Shown here piece after piece: positions 1,685-11,067 of a stretch of 11,067 nucleotides of DNA. The DNA comes from an uncultured archaeon. GTDB taxonomy: Archaea; Hadarchaeota; Hadarchaeia; Hadarchaeales; Hadarchaeaceae. The notes beneath the pieces are model-generated. The model was not told the DNA's origin. It saw nothing but the letters and a program-made list of their open reading frames with translations, and ran no database searches. The DNA lies in contig CAKZTQ010000027.1 in NCBI GenBank assembly GCA_937921735.1, positions 1-11,067 of the forward strand, in the 5' to 3' direction. Every line of letters starts with the position of its first letter. Position 1 is the first letter of the stretch. Both the position numbers and the translations under genes were made by a program.

Positions 1685-2221
1685 ATGTCTCTGATCATTT
1701 TGGTTATTGCTTCGGTGCTGCTCCTTTGGGCGAGCAGTGCATCTCCGCCCACCTTGGAGCTTGTTCTTACGGACACCCTAGGCCTTTACGCCCGTAACGA
1801 AGTCCAGTGGCCGGAGGGGACGCTTACGGTGCGCGCTGGCTTAGCTTGGGGCGAGAACGGTGCCTCGCCGGAGGTCCTCGTCTCCTACACCCCTTGGACG
1901 CCCATGGTCACTATTTCCTGGTCCTGCGACTCCCTCGCGTGCATCCTTGTCCAACCAGGCCAAGAAATCACGGAAGGCCAGCTCATTGGGTACATCTCGG
2001 CTAAAGAGCAGGCCCGTGCCGCGGCCCTCGCTGAGCGTCTGCCCCAGATCCAAGACGAACTCGTGGCCGCGGAAGTCCACGCAGAGCTAGGAAAGATCAC
2101 ACAAGAGAACGAAATCCGGGCTCTGGTGCCTGGTCGTGTCCTCCGGGTGGAGGTGGAGCAGCTTGGCCGCACTCTAAAGGTGCGCGTGCTGGTGTTATGC
2201 AAAATACAACGCACTTTGTAA
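1685..2221 (+). CDS. Secreted or membrane-anchored protein with a lipoyl-like/helical-hairpin (MFP/HlyD-like) domain, 178 aa
   Basis: Hydrophobic N-terminus (MSLIILVIASVLLLWASSA). ILVQPGQEITEGQLIGY half-lipoyl motif, then a helical stretch, then IRALVPGRVLRVEV as the second half-lipoyl motif. Confidence 0.65.
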   Translation: MSLIILVIASVLLLWASSASPPTLELVLTDTLGLYARNEVQWPEGTLTVRAGLAWGENGASPEVLVSYTPWTPMVTISWSCDSLACILVQPGQEITEGQLIGYISAKEQARAAALAERLPQIQDELVAAEVHAELGKITQENEIRALVPGRVLRVEVEQLGRTLKVRVLVLCKIQRTL

Positions 2222-3369
2222 GAGGGAAAAAATTTTTTGCTGAAATAGATTCTGCTCCGTCTGTCGCGGCCGGCCACCCGCCTCCACTCTCCCCTAAAGC
2301 CCAGAGGCTAGCAGAGATCCTGTTGGCCAGATCCAGGGCAGGGACGTGCGTCGTCTCCCAGTATGAGCTCTGCAGGCTGACGGGCTGGAGCCGTGTCACC
2401 GTCTGGCGCTACCTCACCGAGCTCAGGGAAAAGGGCCTCATCAGGTGGGACCGGCGGAAGAGATTGCCCAACGTCTACCGTTTCGCTGATCGCCTCATTG
2501 ATGCTAAAGCTGCTGAACATGAGGCGCTTTTGCCCCCGGCGCTGCGACAGGCCGTAACCCAGGGGCACAACGTGCTGATCCTTGGCCCAGAGGGGATCGG
2601 CAAGACGTTCCAACTTTCCCTCCTCTCCCAGGATGGTTTGAGCGAGCGTGTTGTGTTGCGCCTCCCCGGTGGCACCATCCGCGACGTCTTGACGTCCCTC
2701 TGGGACACGCTCGCCGAGCTAGAGGCCCAGAGGGACGTGGAGTCCACCCGCAAGACCGTGAAGGAGCTCGCAGCGGAAGTACTCTCTGCCCTGAGCCGTT
2801 CCCGCCGAACCTTCATGGTGCTGGCGGACGATGTGGACCGTGCACCACCCAGCTTGCGCCGCTTCCTTTTGGGTCTTCTCTCCCTCTACAACGTCCAGGT
2901 GGTGGCCACAGCCACAGACGAGGCCCAGGTGGCGGATCTGGTGGACCATTTCCTGGTCTTCCCGCTGCCGCCCCTGTCCCAGGAGCAAACAGCGCGCTGG
3001 GTGCGGGACTTCGTGGCCTCTCGGCGCATTCCTGTCCTCGGTGGGGAACGAGGCCTGAGCAAGCTCCAAAGACTGGTCTACCTCCGCAGCCAAGGTAACC
3101 CCCGCAAAATCCAGGCCCTACTTAAGAAGATCGAGGCCCAAGGCTATGTGGACCGAAGATCTCTCCGTGAGGAGCTCCTCGTCGGGGGACGCTTCCAATT
3201 TGTGGACATGACCTGGATCCTCATCCTCACTGCCGCCCTGGCCCTGGCCATCCGCTACCTCTCCTTGGGCTTTCACGACCGCACCCTGTACGTCCTGGCA
3301 GGTCTTACCTACGCAGCAGGCATGCTCATGCGCTGGTTCTCGTATCAGTGGAGGAGGAAGAAGAAATGA
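2197..3369 (+). CDS. Winged-HTH + AAA+ ATPase + two C-terminal TM helices, 390 aa (exact start uncertain)
   Basis: wHTH SQYELCRLTGWSRVTVWRYLTELREKGLI; Walker A GPEGIGKT; Walker B MVLADD; GNPR sensor-2-like motif. Hydrophobic segments WILILTAALALAI and LYVLAGLTYAAGMLM are followed by RRKKK. Confidence 0.85.
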   Translation: MQNTTHFVRGKKFFAEIDSAPSVAAGHPPPLSPKAQRLAEILLARSRAGTCVVSQYELCRLTGWSRVTVWRYLTELREKGLIRWDRRKRLPNVYRFADRLIDAKAAEHEALLPPALRQAVTQGHNVLILGPEGIGKTFQLSLLSQDGLSERVVLRLPGGTIRDVLTSLWDTLAELEAQRDVESTRKTVKELAAEVLSALSRSRRTFMVLADDVDRAPPSLRRFLLGLLSLYNVQVVATATDEAQVADLVDHFLVFPLPPLSQEQTARWVRDFVASRRIPVLGGERGLSKLQRLVYLRSQGNPRKIQALLKKIEAQGYVDRRSLREELLVGGRFQFVDMTWILILTAALALAIRYLSLGFHDRTLYVLAGLTYAAGMLMRWFSYQWRRKKK

Positions 3370-5309
3370 GGCTGCGCACGCATATGCTCAGTAGTCCCTT
3401 CTTCCTTGTGTTGGCGTCTCTTTTTGCGGGGACGCCTCTGGCGCCGGTCGGACCTGTGCTAGCCGCTACGACTGTTGGCGCAGCCTTGCCGGAGGTGGAT
3501 AAGCCTCACAGTCTAGTAGGCCGGCTCTTCCCTTTTTCCGCGTGGATCCACGAGCGCTTCGGCCACCGCGGCCTCACCCATTCTCTCTTGGGCCTGGCCT
3601 TGGTCGCAGGCTTGGCTGCGCCTCTTGCCCTCTTTGCCCGTTCTGTCTGGCTCGCCCTCCTTGTGGGCTACACCTCGCACCTCGTCCTGGATATGGCCAC
3701 GCTGGAGGGCGTGCCGCTCCTTTGGCCCAAGCGCACTCGCCATGTCTTCCCAGGCCGTGACAACCTCCGCATTGACCAATCCTCGCCCGCGGCGGAGCGC
3801 AAGGAGCTAGCCCTCTCCGCCATCATGGTAGCCGGAGCCCTGGCCCTGTGGCCGCTCACGCAAACCGGGCTCACCAGCACCCTCCGCCGCGCCCTGGGGA
3901 CGCTTCCGGAGAGCCTGCCCGAGTACCGCAAACTAGCGGGCGAGTACGAAGTCTTCCTCACTGGCACCTTACAGGATAGGTTGACCGGTCTATCCCACGA
4001 GGGTGAGTGGCCCATCGTGGGAACCTACGGCAATGGCTACCTGATCCGTGTGGGCGAAGAGCTACGGCTGGTGAGCGAAGAGGGCGGGAGCCTCCATCCA
4101 GTGCGTGTGGCTCTGAGGAAGGGCACGCCAATCCATGTCGTTGTGCAAGAGTGGTCCTTCACTGGCCCGATACACCGCCTCTTAGCCGGCATCGACGCCA
4201 AGGTCGAGCACTATATCACCGGCACCTTACGCCTGGATAGACCTGTGTCCTTGACCTTCTCGCCCGCAGCGTTCCCCACCATTCAAGGCCGCGAGCATCT
4301 GACTCTGACCTATGCCCGTACTCAGGACCTCGCAGCTTTGGCAGACGCTGGGGTGGTGGAGGGCCGACTGCAGGTGATATACCGCTTGCGGCCAGGCCAA
4401 AGCATCTCCGTAACCACGGAGGCCTCTCGGCCGCCCGAAGCGAGGCCTCTGGAGATGAAGCTGAGACTACAGTCCCTTTCGGACCTCTTGGTGGGTGAGG
4501 GTGATGTCGTAGCGGAGGGCGAGCTCATGGGCTACGCCTACGTGCCTGAGCTGGCACAGAAACGGCAAGAGCTTGCTCTCGCCCAGGAGCGCTACCAAGG
4601 AGGCCTTATCTCTGCGGTCGAGCTGGCGAAGCTCTCCGCAGAAGTGGAGGCCCTGGAGGAGCGCGCTGCCATATACGCCAAGTTTTCCGGGAAGGTGCGG
4701 GAGATCCGACTCCTAGGCGCAGACGCCGGAAGCGTAGAGGTTGTGGTGGTAATGGTGCCGTCCTCGGTAACAGAGGTAGTGGGAGGCAGGGTCTTGGGAA
4801 CCTCCGCCACCCCGAGCTCAGAGCTTTTGCCCTTCTACCGCGCGTTGCCGGAGCTGTCGGTGGATCACGGGGAAGTAACCTACGTGGTCAAAGCCATCGA
4901 CGGCGACACTGTGCAGATCCTCTACCAGGGGCGAGCACAAAGCGCGAGGCTAGTGGGCTTGGACACCCCGGAGACCAAGCATCCGCGCAAAGGGGTGGAG
5001 TGCTTCGGCCCAGAGGCCTCTCGCTACACCAGCACCACCCTGCCCCGCGGCACCGAAGTGCGCATCACGTTCAACCCCTTGGGCCAGAAGCGTGATAAAT
5101 ACGACCGGCTTTTGGTGTACCTATGGGTCCAGCTCGACGACGACGAGCCGCTAGAGCTGTTCAACGCCGCCCTAATCCGCCTGGGCTATGCCCGCATGTA
5201 CCCATTCTTCAAGTTCGACCGGGCCCAGGAGTTTCGGAACCTGGAGGACATGGCCCGGAAGGAGGCGCGCGGCCTGTGGGGAGCGTGCGGATATGAGCCG
5301 TACCGGTGA
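3366..5309 (+). CDS. Fusion protein: YdjM-family membrane metal-dependent hydrolase + MFP-like domain + thermonuclease (SNase), 647 aa
   Basis: ATGA overlap with the ATPase stop. YdjM motifs RTH, GAALPEVD, HRGLTHS, GYTSHLVLDMAT..GVPLLWP. MFP-like LLVGEGDVVAEGELMGY...IYAKFSGKVREI. SNase motifs IDGDT, RLVGLDTPE, DKYDRLL, ARKEARGLW. Confidence 0.9.
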   Translation: MRLRTHMLSSPFFLVLASLFAGTPLAPVGPVLAATTVGAALPEVDKPHSLVGRLFPFSAWIHERFGHRGLTHSLLGLALVAGLAAPLALFARSVWLALLVGYTSHLVLDMATLEGVPLLWPKRTRHVFPGRDNLRIDQSSPAAERKELALSAIMVAGALALWPLTQTGLTSTLRRALGTLPESLPEYRKLAGEYEVFLTGTLQDRLTGLSHEGEWPIVGTYGNGYLIRVGEELRLVSEEGGSLHPVRVALRKGTPIHVVVQEWSFTGPIHRLLAGIDAKVEHYITGTLRLDRPVSLTFSPAAFPTIQGREHLTLTYARTQDLAALADAGVVEGRLQVIYRLRPGQSISVTTEASRPPEARPLEMKLRLQSLSDLLVGEGDVVAEGELMGYAYVPELAQKRQELALAQERYQGGLISAVELAKLSAEVEALEERAAIYAKFSGKVREIRLLGADAGSVEVVVVMVPSSVTEVVGGRVLGTSATPSSELLPFYRALPELSVDHGEVTYVVKAIDGDTVQILYQGRAQSARLVGLDTPETKHPRKGVECFGPEASRYTSTTLPRGTEVRITFNPLGQKRDKYDRLLVYLWVQLDDDEPLELFNAALIRLGYARMYPFFKFDRAQEFRNLEDMARKEARGLWGACGYEPYR

Positions 5310-5670: not shown

Positions 5671-5939
5671 ACCGGCGGAAAGGATATCAGACCCGATGGA
5701 GGGCATTCGTGACCACCCGCGGCGAGCGCACGGAGTGGTTGCAGCTCCATGCCGGCCACTGGCGCTTGGTACAGCCTGAGGGAGACGCGCAGGTATTCCG
5801 TGGGCCCCGCGGCTGGGCCGCCGTCATAGGTGGGAAGTTTGTGGACTACTACCCTACGCGGGCCCTGGCCATGGAGGCGGCTTTGGAGTGGCTGCGCCAG
5901 CAGGCCACCCTGGCCGAGCAGGAACAGCCATGGACCTAG
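5667..5939 (+). CDS. Hypothetical protein, 90 aa
   Basis: GTGA overlap with the rusA stop and GAGGAGG upstream; operon-like packing; no family recognised. Confidence 0.7.
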   Translation: MNRRKGYQTRWRAFVTTRGERTEWLQLHAGHWRLVQPEGDAQVFRGPRGWAAVIGGKFVDYYPTRALAMEAALEWLRQQATLAEQEQPWT

Positions 5940-6235
5940 AGCGAGCAGTGTTTTTCCTGCTGATCTCTATAACCGTCGCTCTGGCCCTCCGCGCAGCACT
6001 CAACCCCGCGCCCGCACCGAGTGCAGCCGAGCGTGTGCTCCTCGACGCCCAACGAAACCTGGCCCGGATCCGCCAGCTTTCGGAGGATCCACCGCCCTCC
6101 TACGAGGAGGCCCTGGCCAGGCTGTCCCGCATCTACGAGCTGGCACATCGCGTACACGTCCTTTTGGCAAAGCTCGAGGTGCTCGTGGTACAATGCCCGC
6201 GGGAGGGAACTGGGGGACCCATGGACTCTCCCTAA
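5930..6235 (+). CDS. Small protein with N-terminal TM/signal segment and helical body, 101 aa
   Basis: MDLERAVFFLLISITVALAL hydrophobic anchor, then amphipathic helices. Overlaps the previous gene and is followed by a hairpin and T-tract. Confidence 0.7.
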   Translation: MDLERAVFFLLISITVALALRAALNPAPAPSAAERVLLDAQRNLARIRQLSEDPPPSYEEALARLSRIYELAHRVHVLLAKLEVLVVQCPREGTGGPMDSP

Positions 6236-6264
6236 CGTCTAGATCCTCCGCTCCTTCCCGCCAT

Positions 6265-6321
6265 GCTGACCGTGGGCGCCGGCTGCCATGCCGGCGCCCG
6301 TTGCACCGTCGGCGCTTTTTT
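6265..6321 (+). terminator. Probable terminator of the main operon
   Basis: GGGCGCCGGC(6274-6283)/GCCGGCGCCC(6290-6299) perfect 10-bp stem, outer GCTGAC/GTCGGC pairing, T6 at 6316-6321. Confidence 0.55.
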
Positions 6322-6324
6322 GAG

Positions 6325-6837
6325 GTGATCCTCGGCAGCTCGCCGGCCCCTCGGCAAATTGCTGCCGCAAATTGCCGGGCCGGCTCGCTTGCCTCGGGAG
6401 GCGGCGGGGCTTCGCCGGATCGGCCCGCGCGGCACCGGCGCAACACGTGCGTGCCCACGAGTTGCTGTGCCTTGCGCTTCGCGCATGCCGCGCGCGCCTC
6501 CCGGCTCATCCCCGCCGCCAAACCGCCTGATCACAAGCCGCGTTTAACACAGCCCGGCTAAAACCGCCGTAAATCGCCTCCGTCGAAGGACCATGGTCCC
6601 CCCCACCCGGAGGCCATTTTTGGGGCTCTTTATGGGGATAGGGGACGCGCTCGGCCCACGCTCGGCCACGCGGCCGTTTCGCGTCGGCCGCCCGGCCCTG
6701 GCGGGCCTTGGGCCTCGCGCGGTCCTCGCTTGAGCTGCGCGCGTCCTCGCGGGCCCCCCGTCCCCGCTCGGCCGCGCTCCGCAGGGCGGCGGAGCCTCCT
6801 CGCTGCGCTGCGGGGTCTCCGCCGCGGAGCTCCCTGC
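6325..6837. repeat. Two clusters of nested inverted repeats (multi-branched fold; sso/ssi-like or structured RNA)
   Basis: Pairs 6325-6330/6529-6534, 6342-6349/6377-6384, 6400-6409/6510-6519, 6427-6434/6486-6493, 6643-6650/6739-6746, 6776-6782/6824-6830, 6788-6794/6817-6823. No credible ORF here. Confidence 0.65.
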
Positions 6838-6874
6838 CGTCCTCCCCCACCCGCCCGCCCTGAGGAACGAAAAA

Positions 6875-7123
6875 CCTTTTCGGCCGGGCGCCCTATTTTG
6901 CGCGCCCGCCTGTGGCCCGCGGGCCCTCCCGGGGGGTGCTCGCCGCCCCCACGGGTCCTCCCGCGCCCTCCGGGCTGTCAAGCGCCTCGCCCGTGAAGTT
7001 GCGCACCTACGGCCCGCTAAAGGCGGGCGGTGCGCAACTTCCGGGCCGGGGACAAGCCCCACTCTGCGGCGCTTGACAGGGCCAGGCTGGGCGCGTTTCA
7101 CCCCAGGCGCCCGGCCGAAAAGG
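6875..7123 (+). promoter_or_regulatory. Large branched hairpin; putative Frpo-type single-stranded-DNA promoter
   Basis: Perfect stems of 18 bp (6875-6892/7106-7123), 12 bp containing TTGACA (6975-6986/7068-7079) and 13 bp (6995-7007/7029-7041). Unpaired region at the -10 position. AGGAGG and ATG 7142 lie directly downstream. Confidence 0.72.
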
Positions 7124-7141
7124 CTGGGCAAGGAGGTCAGC

Positions 7142-7450
7142 ATGGCGGCGTACTTTGGTGAGTTTGTCGTGTTGGGGGCCCAGGCCGAGGCCGCGGCCCG
7201 GGCCAAGGCCGAGGAACGTCTCAACCGGGAATACCAGCAGGAAGCCATGCACGCTACTGCACAGATTGAGGACGCCATCGAGAACCTCATCGACCTGGCT
7301 CAGCGACCGTGGCTGCGGCCAGTGCTGCTCCGCCACCTCCGGATCATCGAAAGCATGGTGGCAGAACTGGCCCTGGCTGTGGGCGATCCTCGTCTGGCTG
7401 AGCCAGAATGGCTCGGCCGCCCGGAGGAGGGGAGCCATGCGCGCGCCTGA
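7142..7450 (+). CDS. Hypothetical helical protein, 102 aa
   Basis: AAGGAGG RBS before ATG 7142; MAAYFGEF...; first gene after the hairpin promoter. Confidence 0.78.
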   Translation: MAAYFGEFVVLGAQAEAAARAKAEERLNREYQQEAMHATAQIEDAIENLIDLAQRPWLRPVLLRHLRIIESMVAELALAVGDPRLAEPEWLGRPEEGSHARA

Positions 7451-7721
7451 GCGCGCGCTGGCCCTGGCGGGGGATCCGGCCGACGCCCGGCCGGATCCGC
7501 AGCGGTGCCCGCGCTGCGGCGCATGGCTCCATCCCCTTTCGCCGGATCTTTGGTTTTGCCCTACCTGCAGCTTGCTTTGGCCCCCAGAGGAAACCAAGCC
7601 GACTCTTGGCATCCAGATTCCCTTGCCCTTGGACGTGATGGGGCTTGTGGGCTTTTTGGCGCCGCGGCCCCGGCGCTACTTCGACCAGCACGGAAATGAG
7701 GTCCTGAGGAGGGAGCCATGA
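7437..7721 (+). CDS. Zinc-ribbon protein, 94 aa
   Basis: GGAGGAGG RBS; CPRC...CPTC motif; overlaps both neighbours. Confidence 0.75.
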   Translation: MRAPERALALAGDPADARPDPQRCPRCGAWLHPLSPDLWFCPTCSLLWPPEETKPTLGIQIPLPLDVMGLVGFLAPRPRRYFDQHGNEVLRREP

Positions 7722-7915
7722 AGTGGTTCTTAGGGTTGGGTTGGGCCGTGGCCGCGCGGCTGCCGCGGCCCCTGCAGCTGCGCCGCTGGCTGCGGGAAAA
7801 AACGCGAGGGGTGAACTGCCAGCACCAATGGCACTTCATCGGCTGGCGCCCAGAGTTCACTGGCGCACGGCGCGTGTACCAGTGCCGCAAATGCCTGCGG
7901 TGCAAGGTGAAATGA
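7718..7915 (+). CDS. Small basic Zn-finger protein (CxHxW...CxxC), 65 aa
   Basis: ATGA overlap, GAGGAGG RBS, CQHQW...YQCRKC motif of the kind seen in small phage/MGE proteins. Confidence 0.72.
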   Translation: MKWFLGLGWAVAARLPRPLQLRRWLREKTRGVNCQHQWHFIGWRPEFTGARRVYQCRKCLRCKVK

Positions 7916-7926
7916 GGGGGTGAGCC

Positions 7927-8310
7927 ATGGCCATAAAAGGGACGGTCGTGTTTGTGGAGGCTCGCGGAAAGGCGGTGCGCGTGGGCGCGCGGTCCGAGGA
8001 TGGCTTGATGTGGTTTTGGACCACGACGGGCCCCGCTCCCTGCCGGGGCCAGGTCGTGGACATCCCCCCGGGCGCCAAGCCCGAGCCTTATCGGAGGAAT
8101 GGATCCGGGTTCGGGAAGGCCCCGGCGCGGCCGGAGGCCCCTCATTCGGCCACTCGCAGTGAAGAGGCCCTTCCGGAAGACGTGGCGCGCGTGCTCCGCG
8201 CGGTTGCGCTCAAGGCCGCGGCCGCGGTGTACTCCGGGCACGGGACCAGCGCTGTACCACTCGCGCTCCAGACCGCGGAACAATTTCTGGCCTGGCTGAA
8301 TGAAAAATAA
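7927..8310 (+). CDS. Hypothetical protein, possibly a phage-type ssDNA-binding protein, 127 aa
   Basis: Beta-rich N-terminus (IKGTVVFVE...VRV...WFW...GQVVDI), Pro/Ala linker, C-terminal RAVALKAAA...AEQFLAWL helices. The ORF is solid; the function is inferred. Confidence 0.55.
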   Translation: MAIKGTVVFVEARGKAVRVGARSEDGLMWFWTTTGPAPCRGQVVDIPPGAKPEPYRRNGSGFGKAPARPEAPHSATRSEEALPEDVARVLRAVALKAAAAVYSGHGTSAVPLALQTAEQFLAWLNEK

Positions 8311-8317
8311 ACCCCTA

Positions 8318-8346
8318 GGCCCGGGTGCTGCGCCCGGGCCCTTTTT
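8318..8346 (+). terminator. Intrinsic terminator
   Basis: GGCCCGGG(8318-8325)/CCCGGGCC(8333-8340) stem followed by CTTTTT, between convergent genes. Confidence 0.8.
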
Positions 8347-8378
8347 CCATGCCCGGGTGAGCCCACGAAGGCCTCAAG

Positions 8379-9131
8379 CTAGGTGGCTGAGTGGACAGGG
8401 CTTTTCTCCACAAGACCAACATCGCTCATATATAGAAGGACAGGTCGGGCCGTAGGGCCAAGCCGGTTTTTTACCACCTCAAGCACCCGCAGACCGTTCC
8501 CGACGTAAGAGAGTTTGAGCACCACATCTACTACGTGTTCCATCATCCTCGGACCCGCCAAGCCTTTCTTGCTCACTTGGGTTACAAGAAGGACGCAGGC
8601 ACCAGTTTGCCGGGCAAATCGCAGGCACTCCTGCCCCGCCTCTCGTTGGGCTTGGGGACTGCCCGGGGTCAAACTGGCCCGCACTGTCACCAAGGGGAGG
8701 GAGTCGACAATCAGAAGTTCCGCGCCTGCGGCCCGGCGCAGAGCCCGCCTTACCAGGAACTCTTCCAAAAATACAATGCCCGATGCGTCTTGAAGGACAC
8801 GCTTCGCTCGCTCCCGCACCACCTCGGCTCGCTCCTCCGCACACATGTACACCACCAGCCCGTACCGCCTAAAAACTCCCGCAACCTGTAGGGCTAGCGT
8901 GGACTTTCCCACCCCAGGCTCACCGCCCAGGAGAAGAACGCTCCCTGCGGGGAGGTCCGCAAAAAGGCCAAAGAGAGCAAAGCCTAGGGAAAATCTTTGC
9001 GGAGTCGCTCCAGGTTTTCTTTGGGTCTTTTCCTCCTCCTGGAATGGCAAAAACGCTCCCCAAGTGCCGCAGGAGGGGCAGACCGCAAGCGGCCCAGGTT
9101 CCACACGGCCACACCACCGGCAAAAGTACAC
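8379..9131 (-). CDS. radA: RadA/Sms-like protein lacking the C-terminal Lon-like domain, 250 aa
   Basis: YFCRWCG...CPSCGTW C4 zinc finger; GGEPGVGKSTL Walker A; YMCAEE; LLIVDS Walker B; LAGPRMMEHVVDVVL; KNRLG (compare RadA KNRFG). Confidence 0.85.
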   Translation of the reverse strand: MYFCRWCGRVEPGPLAVCPSCGTWGAFLPFQEEEKTQRKPGATPQRFSLGFALFGLFADLPAGSVLLLGGEPGVGKSTLALQVAGVFRRYGLVVYMCAEERAEVVRERAKRVLQDASGIVFLEEFLVRRALRRAAGAELLIVDSLPLVTVRASLTPGSPQAQREAGQECLRFARQTGACVLLVTQVSKKGLAGPRMMEHVVDVVLKLSYVGNGLRVLEVVKNRLGPTARPVLLYMSDVGLVEKSPVHSAT

Positions 9132-10445: not shown

Positions 10446-10956
10446 TTACAGGATCCTGAAATCCGGAAATTTCCCGCGGGATCTAACAGAACGTGGACCG
10501 GTTAAGGGGCTCCATGGGCGACCGGCAAGGGTTGTTTCTGTGATCGCCCCAAAGTACGGCGATAGAACCTTAAGGATGTCCCCTGCTTCGAGGAGCTCCA
10601 GTCCGCGCACCCGGCTGAAGTGCTTGCTGTTCCGGGTAAGGAGCGGCAACCCTCTTCCCAGCCAACAGCCAGCGATTAACAAGTCCATCGCCCTTCGCCC
10701 GCAACTCACGATTGACCGCCCCAGCTCGCAGGGCTGATGGACGATCTGGGACCACGACGTGGACCGCTTGGGTTAAGAGCTCCGAGTCATGAAGCTGGTC
10801 AGGAGTCTGAGCACCGCAGGCCAACTCGAACAACGTTACGCTCGTCACGGCCAGCGGGACCTCTTGCAGGAGGTTCCTTGAGCACTTCCGCCGAGGGCGA
10901 TACCCCGGCAAAAAGTCGATCAGGATGTCCGTGTGTGCAACGACGTACCCGCCCAT
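10446..10956 (-). pseudogene. vapC: Frameshifted PIN-domain VapC toxin
   Basis: N-half (VVAHTDILIDFL...TSVTLFELACGA...ELRAKG) and C-half (MDLLIAG...LPLLTRNSKHFSRVRGL) are in different frames, switching near 10690. The first catalytic Asp position reads His. Confidence 0.8.
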
Positions 10957-11067
10957 TGCTTGCGGAGCTCCTCGATCGCAGCCCTGGTCCGCTTGGCTTC
11001 CTCCCGTGTCCGGGCCCCCTTCCGGTTCAGTAAGGCACGGCTGGCCTCCTCAGCCTCCGCATGGTCC
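10920..11067 (-). CDS. C-terminal part of a probable VapB-type antitoxin (5' end outside the window)
   Basis: Manual translation ...EEASRALLNRKGARTREEAKRTRAAIEELRKQWAGTSLHTRTS*; overlaps the start of the PIN gene as antitoxins typically do. Confidence 0.55.
   Translation of the reverse strand, partial: DHAEAEEASRALLNRKGARTREEAKRTRAAIEELRKQWAGTSLHTRTS

Follow-up and report, generated by a model that had tools for sequence, protein, structure and literature searches.

We describe here a branched inverted repeat of 250 nucleotides (nt) that stands in front of an operon of four small genes in the DNA of an uncultivated marine organism. The stretch analysed, called the window throughout, is the whole of contig C27 (11,067 base pairs, bp), one of the 60 contigs of a genome bin of 1.06 Mb. 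The best available reading of the repeat, unproven and in our judgement a little short of an even chance, is that it is an Frpo-like promoter which exists only in single-stranded DNA (ssDNA). The observation behind this reading was confirmed as real and conserved, and it consists of the hairpin structure, the geometry of its promoter-like motifs, their conservation in two related loci (L018 and L019) and the lack of a promoter in double-stranded DNA (dsDNA).

Structure and promoter-like geometry of the hairpin

The repeat (positions 6874-7124) is built of two perfect pairs of arms, of 18 nt (6875-6892 and 7106-7123) and 12 nt (6975-6986 and 7068-7079), together with an imperfect middle pair of 30 nt (6985-7014 and 7022-7051, 77%). 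Folded as DNA, the minus strand of region 6860-7145 reached −111.5 kcal/mol (z score −9.65) and the plus strand −112.5 kcal/mol (z −9.64), and none of the 200 shuffled sequences folded as well in either case. The plus strand folded as RNA reached −198.6 kcal/mol (z −7.81). A branched hairpin had been claimed in the original prediction, which was made from the letters of the window and called for a fold of the minus strand with DNA parameters; both the repeat arms and the folds bear it out, and the arms and the sequence agree with the further claim that an 18-bp stem, AGGAGG and the ATG at 7142 follow one another. When the contig was folded in sliding segments of 300 nt and the energies were regressed on the guanine plus cytosine (G+C) content, the segments at 6826-6876 gave residual z values of −3.7 to −4.4 on both strands, which are among the strongest outliers of the contig and are equalled only by a second structured block at about 6250-6330. 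The hairpin lies within a non-coding region of 900 nt with 70-77% G+C.

In the folded minus strand, TTGACA is rebuilt in a duplex, 17 template nt separate it from the −10 position, and the hexamer CAAAAT stands at this position in an unpaired internal loop. According to the partition function ensemble, TTGACA is paired with a probability of 0.97-1.00 and CAAAAT is mostly open, the pairing probabilities of its six bases being 0.36, 0.31, 0.03, 0.06, 0.05, and 0.22. The loop measures 7 × 9 nt, with CAAAATA facing GGGGTGAAA (complement of 7104-7096). This promoter-mimicking geometry is as originally described, and the two related loci are consistent with it. Of the four possible combinations of arm and strand, only the 3′ arm of the minus strand yields a hexamer whose second base is A and whose sixth is T, and it does so in all three loci; the remaining arms read TTTCAC, TTTTTG, and TCTTTT on the plus strand and GTGAAA, TCAAAA, and GAAAAG on the minus strand. 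In addition, this is the reading that faces the operon, with a Shine-Dalgarno (SD) sequence and an ATG 18-48 nt past the stem in the three loci. The basal stem provides a downstream duplex of 15-20 bp, which is about the length held by RNA polymerase.

In the double-stranded form, TTGACA is followed after 17 nt by TTTCAC (7096-7101), a poor −10 box with neither A at position 2 nor T at position 6. A scan of 5800-8500 for sigma70-like promoters returned no site, and a second scan of both strands, which required A and T as the second and sixth bases of the −10 hexamer and a minimum of 8 matches in 12, found no sigma70-type promoter in the regions of the window, L018, and L019. The sequence and the scans therefore uphold the claim that the dsDNA offers a perfect TTGACA (7073-7078), a spacer of 17 bp and a non-consensus −10. 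A conventional dsDNA promoter could also use TATTTT (6894-6899), the plus-strand complement of the loop motif, as its −10 box, with a start near 6906 and a leader of about 235 nt. This hexamer is the only TANNNT on the plus strand of 6321-7141, a non-coding stretch of 820 nt, and it recurs in L019; furthermore, promoters with a −10 box alone are used by many G+C-rich bacteria. However, no −35 box stands 15-19 nt away from it in the window or in L019, the hexamer reads CATTTT in L018, and half of the basal stem of 15-20 bp would fall outside the transcript, which leaves the conserved perfect pairing of its arms without explanation. We consider such a promoter quite improbable.

No other place in the 1.06-Mb genome matched the hairpin beyond chance matches of 14-38 nt, and the perfect inverted repeats of 14 nt or more detected across the genome included no second element of this kind. 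The other long inverted repeats (contigs C16, C17, and C45) were considered as kin and rejected as operator-like palindromes unrelated to it. Among them, 16-nt palindromes of the type TGACATACGTGTGTCA are repeated in pairs on the archaeal contigs C16 (14462-14584) and C45 (28417-28663) and are probably operator sites. The contigs of three DNA runs held no variant inside the hairpin, and the pieces listed break around it. The 18-nt arm motif had 23 exact matches in viral contigs, all in unrelated contexts and without the partner arm, and a DNA search among 40 relatives gave a single chance match of 30 nt.

Conservation of the hairpin in related loci

A scan of the JGI metagenomes with an alignment of gene 4 of the operon gave four loci. 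Two of them (L016 and L017) had no upstream DNA, so that L018 and L019 were compared with the window. Both carry a run of four to five small genes arranged as in the window, first one for a helical protein, then those for zinc-ribbon proteins and last gene 4, and gene 4 is the only clear homologue shared with the window; single pairwise comparisons of genes 1-3 between the window and L018 gave E values of 0.033, 31, and 0.039, which are marginal. In both loci a hairpin lies directly 5′ of the first gene. That of L018 (61-193) has a z score of −6.64 and none of 200 shuffles folded as well, and that of L019 (383-499) has a z score of −2.90, with one of 200 shuffles as good. They are built as in the window, with a G+C-rich basal stem (19 bp in L018 and 15 bp in L019), an internal loop and a second stem.

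The non-template side of the loop reads TAAAAT in L018 and CAAAAT in L019, at the same place as CAAAAT in the window; in L018 the T is paired (probability 0.96) and AAAAT is open, as in a fork junction. A hexamer containing TTG stands above the −10-like hexamer, at 17 template nt in L018 (TTGTAG) and at 16 in L019 (TTGAAG), a spacing which assumes that an 11-nt bulge (L018) or small bulges (L019) are extruded from the non-template side. Between the A-rich loop and the basal stem, both loci have a GAA/GAA loop and a GC clamp of 2 bp; therefore the unpaired stretch would run from about −11 to −2. The GAA/GAA loop is purine-purine only on the minus strand, and the minus strand folds slightly better than the plus strand in L018 (−67.3 versus −64.7) and in L019 (−38.1 versus −34.3).

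L018 and L019 are 72% identical over the hairpin region. Their basal stems differ by one exchange of G-C for T-A, their second stems are unrelated in sequence and each is self-complementary, and the stems of the window differ again in sequence and are perfect. Compensatory changes in homologues, proposed as a check in the original prediction, are thus seen in so far as the stems differ yet stay complementary; no pair statistics are claimed, because the second stems of these two loci defeated alignment with MAFFT. The element of L018 is directly adjoined by a terminator-like hairpin (1-62, arms of 29 nt), and therefore a promoter could be accommodated only within the element's own hairpin.

The hairpin might instead act from the plus strand as a structured RNA leader or non-coding RNA affecting translation, stability or termination, with its U-rich internal loop as a contact site for a protein or another RNA. 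In the window the two strands fold equally well as DNA and the plus strand folds also as RNA, the hairpin is directly before the SD sequence and the ATG, and conserved pairing would be expected for an RNA too. Nevertheless, the plus strand has no promoter-like site in the stretch from the terminator at 6320 to the hairpin, and in L018 the abutting terminator-like hairpin leaves no room for a promoter upstream. Moreover, the covariance models of Rfam 15 gave no match at E ≤ 1 in the whole window on both strands, and L018 and L019 fold worse on the plus strand, where GAA/GAA becomes UUC/UUC. An RNA leader is, in our opinion, unlikely.

Two observations touch on these comparisons. The window has a single G-quadruplex motif (6844-6860, minus strand), with four tracts of at least three G joined by 1-nt loops, and it lies 14 nt away from the hairpin base; it was considered as a part of the element and set aside as incidental, since neither L018 nor L019 has it. 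In L018, gene 4 is truncated by the end of an IS3-like transposase gene (L018:1054-1401, minus strand), which was called from its C-terminal motif by eye and had no Pfam match at E ≤ 0.001.

A proposed promoter active only in single-stranded DNA

With the hairpin read as a single-strand promoter, we infer recognition by RNA polymerase, a start site and a single-stranded stage of the minus strand. Once single-stranded, the minus strand would fold, and its distal arm would pair with the template and rebuild a duplex −35 box (TTGACA). The 16-bp spacer helix would stack on this box while the non-template strand extrudes the 57-nt side branch, so that the −10 position would be a pre-opened bubble with CAAAAT on the non-template side and the 20-bp basal stem would form the duplex downstream of it. 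Transcription by a sigma70-type holoenzyme would begin near 7109, yield a 33-nt leader with AGGAGG and continue through the four small genes (7142-8310) as far as the terminator at 8318. When the complementary strand is made, the −10 position would read TTTCAC and the promoter would be off.

To our knowledge, single-strand promoters are proven only for the F and IncI1 plasmids of enterobacteria. In these plasmids they time the first genes expressed after DNA entry. Folded ssDNA also mimics a promoter for the host holoenzyme in the single-strand origins that depend on RNA polymerase (ssoA/ssoU of rolling-circle plasmids and the minus-strand origin of filamentous phages). The window element is like these origins in this predicted respect and different from them in others, since they yield short primers, have no SD sequence or operon after them and accompany a double-strand origin and a rolling-circle Rep, which was not found among the window proteins.

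Frpo is a non-coding sequence of the leading region whose ssDNA folds into a stem-loop that rebuilds the −35 and −10 boxes and recruits RNA polymerase, and it is shut off by synthesis of the complementary strand (PMC9849209, PMC11541004). Three classes of single-strand promoters, unrelated in sequence, have been reported from pESBL and F; they were found through a sliding fold at −75 kcal/mol with box prediction and confirmed by 5′ rapid amplification of cDNA ends, and Frpo was described as both transcribing and priming (PMC12672017; bioRxiv 10.64898/2026.01.09.698686). The calling rules of the first of these reports ask for a large stem-loop that falls below −75 kcal/mol within 300 nt, for −35 and −10 boxes rebuilt by it and for an operon downstream (PMC12672017), and the window hairpin has all three. 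In contrast, blastn (word size 11) of 6200-7500 against 72,556 plasmids of PLSDB, F included, gave no match. Therefore, the hairpin resembles an ssDNA promoter on paper and is not a member of the Frpo sequence family. The logic of Frpo and ssi promoters, to which the hairpin had originally been assigned, thus holds for the stem-loop, the rebuilt boxes and the place before an operon, and fails for sequence similarity to the PLSDB plasmids.

The window element shares with Frpo1 and Frpo2 of F and ssi1-3 of ColIb-P9 (class 1) a large stem-loop formed by the template strand with rebuilt −35 and −10 boxes (250 nt in the window and about 320 nt for Frpo2 in our own fold), the place 18-48 nt before the SD sequence and ATG of an operon of small genes, and a predicted inactivity once double-stranded. 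It differs from them in its 74% G+C, in its three-way junction with a side branch on the non-template arm, in that neither oriT nor a relaxase nor a known leading-region gene (ssb, psiB, ardA) was found near it and in a host that is an uncultivated marine organism and not an enterobacterium. Classes 2 and 3 (ssp2 and ssp3 of pESBL and F, upstream of klcA/ardA and M.EcoGIX) are likewise defined by structure and rebuilt boxes and have no homology to Frpo; therefore such promoters arise in unrelated sequence families (PMC12672017; bioRxiv 10.64898/2026.01.09.698686). Unlike the window element, these two classes have mapped start sites and lie in proven leading regions.

Several points weigh against a promoter of this kind. 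The spacer requires that the non-template strand extrude a branch of 57 nt (window) or a bulge of 11 nt (L018), and the tolerance of RNA polymerase for this is assumed. The −35-like hexamers of L018 and L019 are weak and only partly paired, and the sequences compared are three, two of which are the 72% identical L018 and L019. On the plus strand, the complement of the loop motif is itself −10-like, reading TATTTT in both the window and L019 and CATTTT in L018, and the strands of the window hairpin are not told apart by fold energy, while the RNA folds too. The motif criteria, moreover, are not calibrated on a known case. The hairpin of Frpo2 from F, taken for calibration, folds with a z score of −6.12 and shows by eye TGGACA in a duplex and TATCAG in an internal loop (our own reading). 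The linear scan for sigma70-like boxes recovered no clear boxes in it, with no site at the threshold of 8 in 12 and only two weak ones at a looser setting. In addition, the main organism of the bin is an archaeon, and the putative assignment of C27 to a bacterium rests on the signals and proteins of the contig, without linkage.

The single-stranded stage deserves attention in this regard, for it was part of the original prediction that the element enters cells or replicates as minus-strand ssDNA. We found no backing for this: a relaxase, a coupling protein of a type IV secretion system and a rolling-circle Rep were not found among the window proteins, and PF03432, PF02534, and PF08751 had no match in the bin. 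The missing relaxase and Rep are not proof of absence, because the contig is incomplete. No primase was found among the window proteins either, and no oriT-linked gene in the 11-kb contig.

The hairpin could also be a replication or priming signal, such as a single-strand origin or an ssi-type site, at which a primer would be laid down on the displaced strand by RNA polymerase or a primase, or a part of the origin of the plasmid-like element. It lies in a 900-nt G+C-rich non-coding region with more hairpins that fold better on the minus strand, two 9-nt palindromes stand at 6354-6375, genes for partition and recombination are nearby (ParA, RadA/Sms-like, and RusA), and Frpo itself transcribes and primes (PMC12672017; bioRxiv 10.64898/2026.01.09.698686). 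Against this, the window has neither a rolling-circle Rep nor a primase that could be found, the structured block at 6316-6600 and the other upstream modules are not conserved in L018 and L019, and the fixed place and orientation before the SD sequence and ATG in the three loci fit a promoter better. We hold this explanation to be distinctly unlikely on its own, and it does not exclude a single-strand promoter.

Somewhat more tentatively than for the hairpin itself, we suggest that the three loci may represent a hitherto unrecognised family of promoters that work only as single strands and that belong to G+C-rich mobile elements of uncultivated marine bacteria. The traits of this family might be, with the same reserve, a yAAAAT bubble, a downstream duplex of 15-20 bp, a −35 helix reached through a three-way junction and a −10 box disabled in dsDNA. 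If the single-strand promoter is true, the element passes through a single-stranded stage of its minus strand, be it by conjugation, transformation, rolling-circle replication or exposure of the lagging strand, and the four small zinc-ribbon and beta-barrel proteins would be immediate-early functions, which would make genes 1-4 candidates for early establishment or anti-defence. Such an element, analogous in structure and unrelated in sequence to the proven ones, would suggest that the strategy is widespread and arose repeatedly; it is conserved in three loci, comes from a G+C-rich uncultivated organism and has no conjugation genes in sight. For the study of RNA polymerase on folded ssDNA, it would in addition serve as a compact natural scaffold of the bubble-promoter type.

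Contig, host and neighbouring genes

Across the genome of the bin, TANNNT was not in excess 16-18 nt after TTGACA; the composition of the bin was therefore examined and found to be mainly archaeal. It must be noted that the bin is mixed, because contig C55 (6927-12000) carries an archaeal 16S-tRNA-Ala-23S operon and the whole of contig C24 is a complete bacterial 16S-tRNA-Ile-tRNA-Ala-23S operon. The archaeal label should not be carried over to C27, which is probably misbinned. With good confidence we take C27 for a fragment of a bacterial plasmid-like or integrated element, because of the bacterial-type signals and proteins on the contig and not because of linkage. The signals are intrinsic terminators and a sigma70-type promoter (TTGCAC, 16 nt, TACAAT, followed by AAGGAGGTG) that sits after one of them, 5′ of an excisionase-like helix-turn-helix gene at 1469 with a strong SD sequence. 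The proteins are RusA, a YdjM-nuclease fusion, a Soj-type ParA, a resolvase and VapBC pairs, together with a truncated RadA/Sms with 30-35% identity to bacterial radA.

Were C27 to belong to the archaeon of the bin, the T-rich box at 7096-7101 could act as a weak TATA box, with transcription starting about 26 nt further on, where the inverted repeat ends. The main rRNA operon of the bin is indeed archaeal, the tRNA genes on its large contigs have TTTAAT-like (TATA-like) boxes 25-30 nt upstream, and in all three loci the T-rich box and the end of the basal stem are about 25-30 nt apart. However, GTTTCAC is not TATA-like, the bin also holds the complete bacterial rRNA operon, C27 has the terminator, sigma70-type boxes and strong SD sequence just described and encodes the bacterial-type RadA/Sms fragment and RusA, and a search of the 65 other genomes available for the phylum gave no member of the gene-4 family. 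An archaeal TATA box seems to us very improbable.

The features of the hairpin and of the operon are given in Table 1. The stretch 7142-8310 had been taken originally for one expressed unit; the codon-position G+C and the frames resolve it into four genes, each with a strong SD sequence 5′ of it.

Table 1. Coordinates of the features of the hairpin and of the downstream operon in the window.
Feature	Position	Strand	Description
Terminator-like hairpins with T6	6274-6320	+	Follow the gene 5888-6235; set the operon apart from transcription upstream of it
Basal stem, non-template arm	6874-6893	-	Pairs with 7105-7124; 18 perfect pairs and 2 G-T, 20 bp; proposed downstream duplex
Internal loop, non-template side	6894-6900	-	Minus strand reads CAAAATA (complement of 6900-6894)
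Spacer stem, non-template side	6901-6918	-	18 nt with a 2-nt bulge; pairs with 7079-7095; 16 bp, two small bulges in the helix
Side branch of small hairpins	6919-6975	-	57 nt; leaves the non-template arm at the three-way junction between −35 stem and spacer stem
−35 stem, non-template side	6976-6986	-	Minus strand reads GGCGCTTGACA; TTGACA is the complement of 6981-6976
Distal hairpins	6988-7066		Stem of 13+6+5 bp at 6989-7046; 5-bp hairpin at 7047-7061
−35 stem, template side	7068-7078	+	TTGACA at 7073-7078, the only one on the plus strand of the window; helix of 11-12 bp
Template-side spacer	7079-7095	+	17 nt
Internal loop, template side	7096-7104	+	Plus strand reads TTTCACCCC; 9 nt
Basal stem, template side	7105-7124	+	Putative start site near 7109, 7 nt after the −10-like hexamer
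SD sequence AGGAGG	7131-7136	+	5 nt before ATG 7142
Gene 1	7142-7450	+	102 amino acids (aa), no family
Gene 2	7437-7721	+	94 aa, zinc-ribbon-like (CPRC...CPTC)
Gene 3	7718-7915	+	65 aa, C-terminal CxxCxxC
Gene 4	7927-8310	+	127 aa, small beta-barrel, linker and helical hairpin; small family
Terminator-like hairpin with T run	8318-8349	+	Hairpin 8318-8340; ends the operon

None of genes 1-4 matched a Pfam, NCBIfam or PADLOC family, and hence no known establishment or anti-defence gene (ssb, psiB, ardA, klcA, methylase) was recognised among them; two matched PHROGs weakly, both of unknown function. Among 5.8 billion proteins gene 1 matched only itself, and it had no match in genome contigs and a single marginal one in the 65 other genomes of the phylum (E 0.0082, with two stops). 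Gene 2 has two relatives with 55-57% identity, and its alignment had no match in metagenome, genome or viral contigs. For gene 4, 16 proteins were found at E ≤ 0.001 among 1.84 billion representatives, and there were no matches to its alignment in viral contigs or to the gene in PLSDB and phages. The structural model of gene 4 (predicted local distance difference test of 78.6) has a small N-terminal beta-barrel (1-54), a disordered linker and a C-terminal helical hairpin that carries the invariant motif VAL-AAA. Its structural matches, to eS28 and Mop-like barrels, are weak (E of at least 0.037); a nucleic-acid-binding, OB-like role is possible.

Upstream of the hairpin, the structured block at 6316-6600 comprises a hairpin at 6337-6392 and another of 125 nt at 6396-6520. 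The minus strand of the block gives the clearly better fold (−97.2, z −7.14, against −86.6, z −4.86, for the plus strand), and all modules of 6321-6873 share this bias. Inside the first of these hairpins, the 9-nt near-palindrome GCAAATTGC occurs twice (6354-6362 and 6367-6375, 13 nt apart), and the pair may serve as an operator or as a site of the iteron type.

Convergent to the operon and adjoining ParA, a RadA/Sms-like gene (8379-9131, minus strand) encodes an N-terminal zinc ribbon and an ATPase domain with the KNRLG motif, without the Lon-like domain; a search of viral contigs with this protein gave one unrelated locus. Two further genes overlap head to tail. The first (2197-3369) encodes a winged-helix and P-loop ATPase protein with two predicted C-terminal membrane helices, and the second (3348-5309) a YdjM membrane hydrolase fused to a staphylococcal-type nuclease, the nuclease part of which matches PADLOC PDLC01096 (5.9e-30). 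Finally, the summed contig depth in one DNA run (X1) was about 938 at 10702-11067 and 17-40 over most of the contig. The end of C27 is probably a repeat common to abundant organisms, which would be the reason why the assembly stops there.

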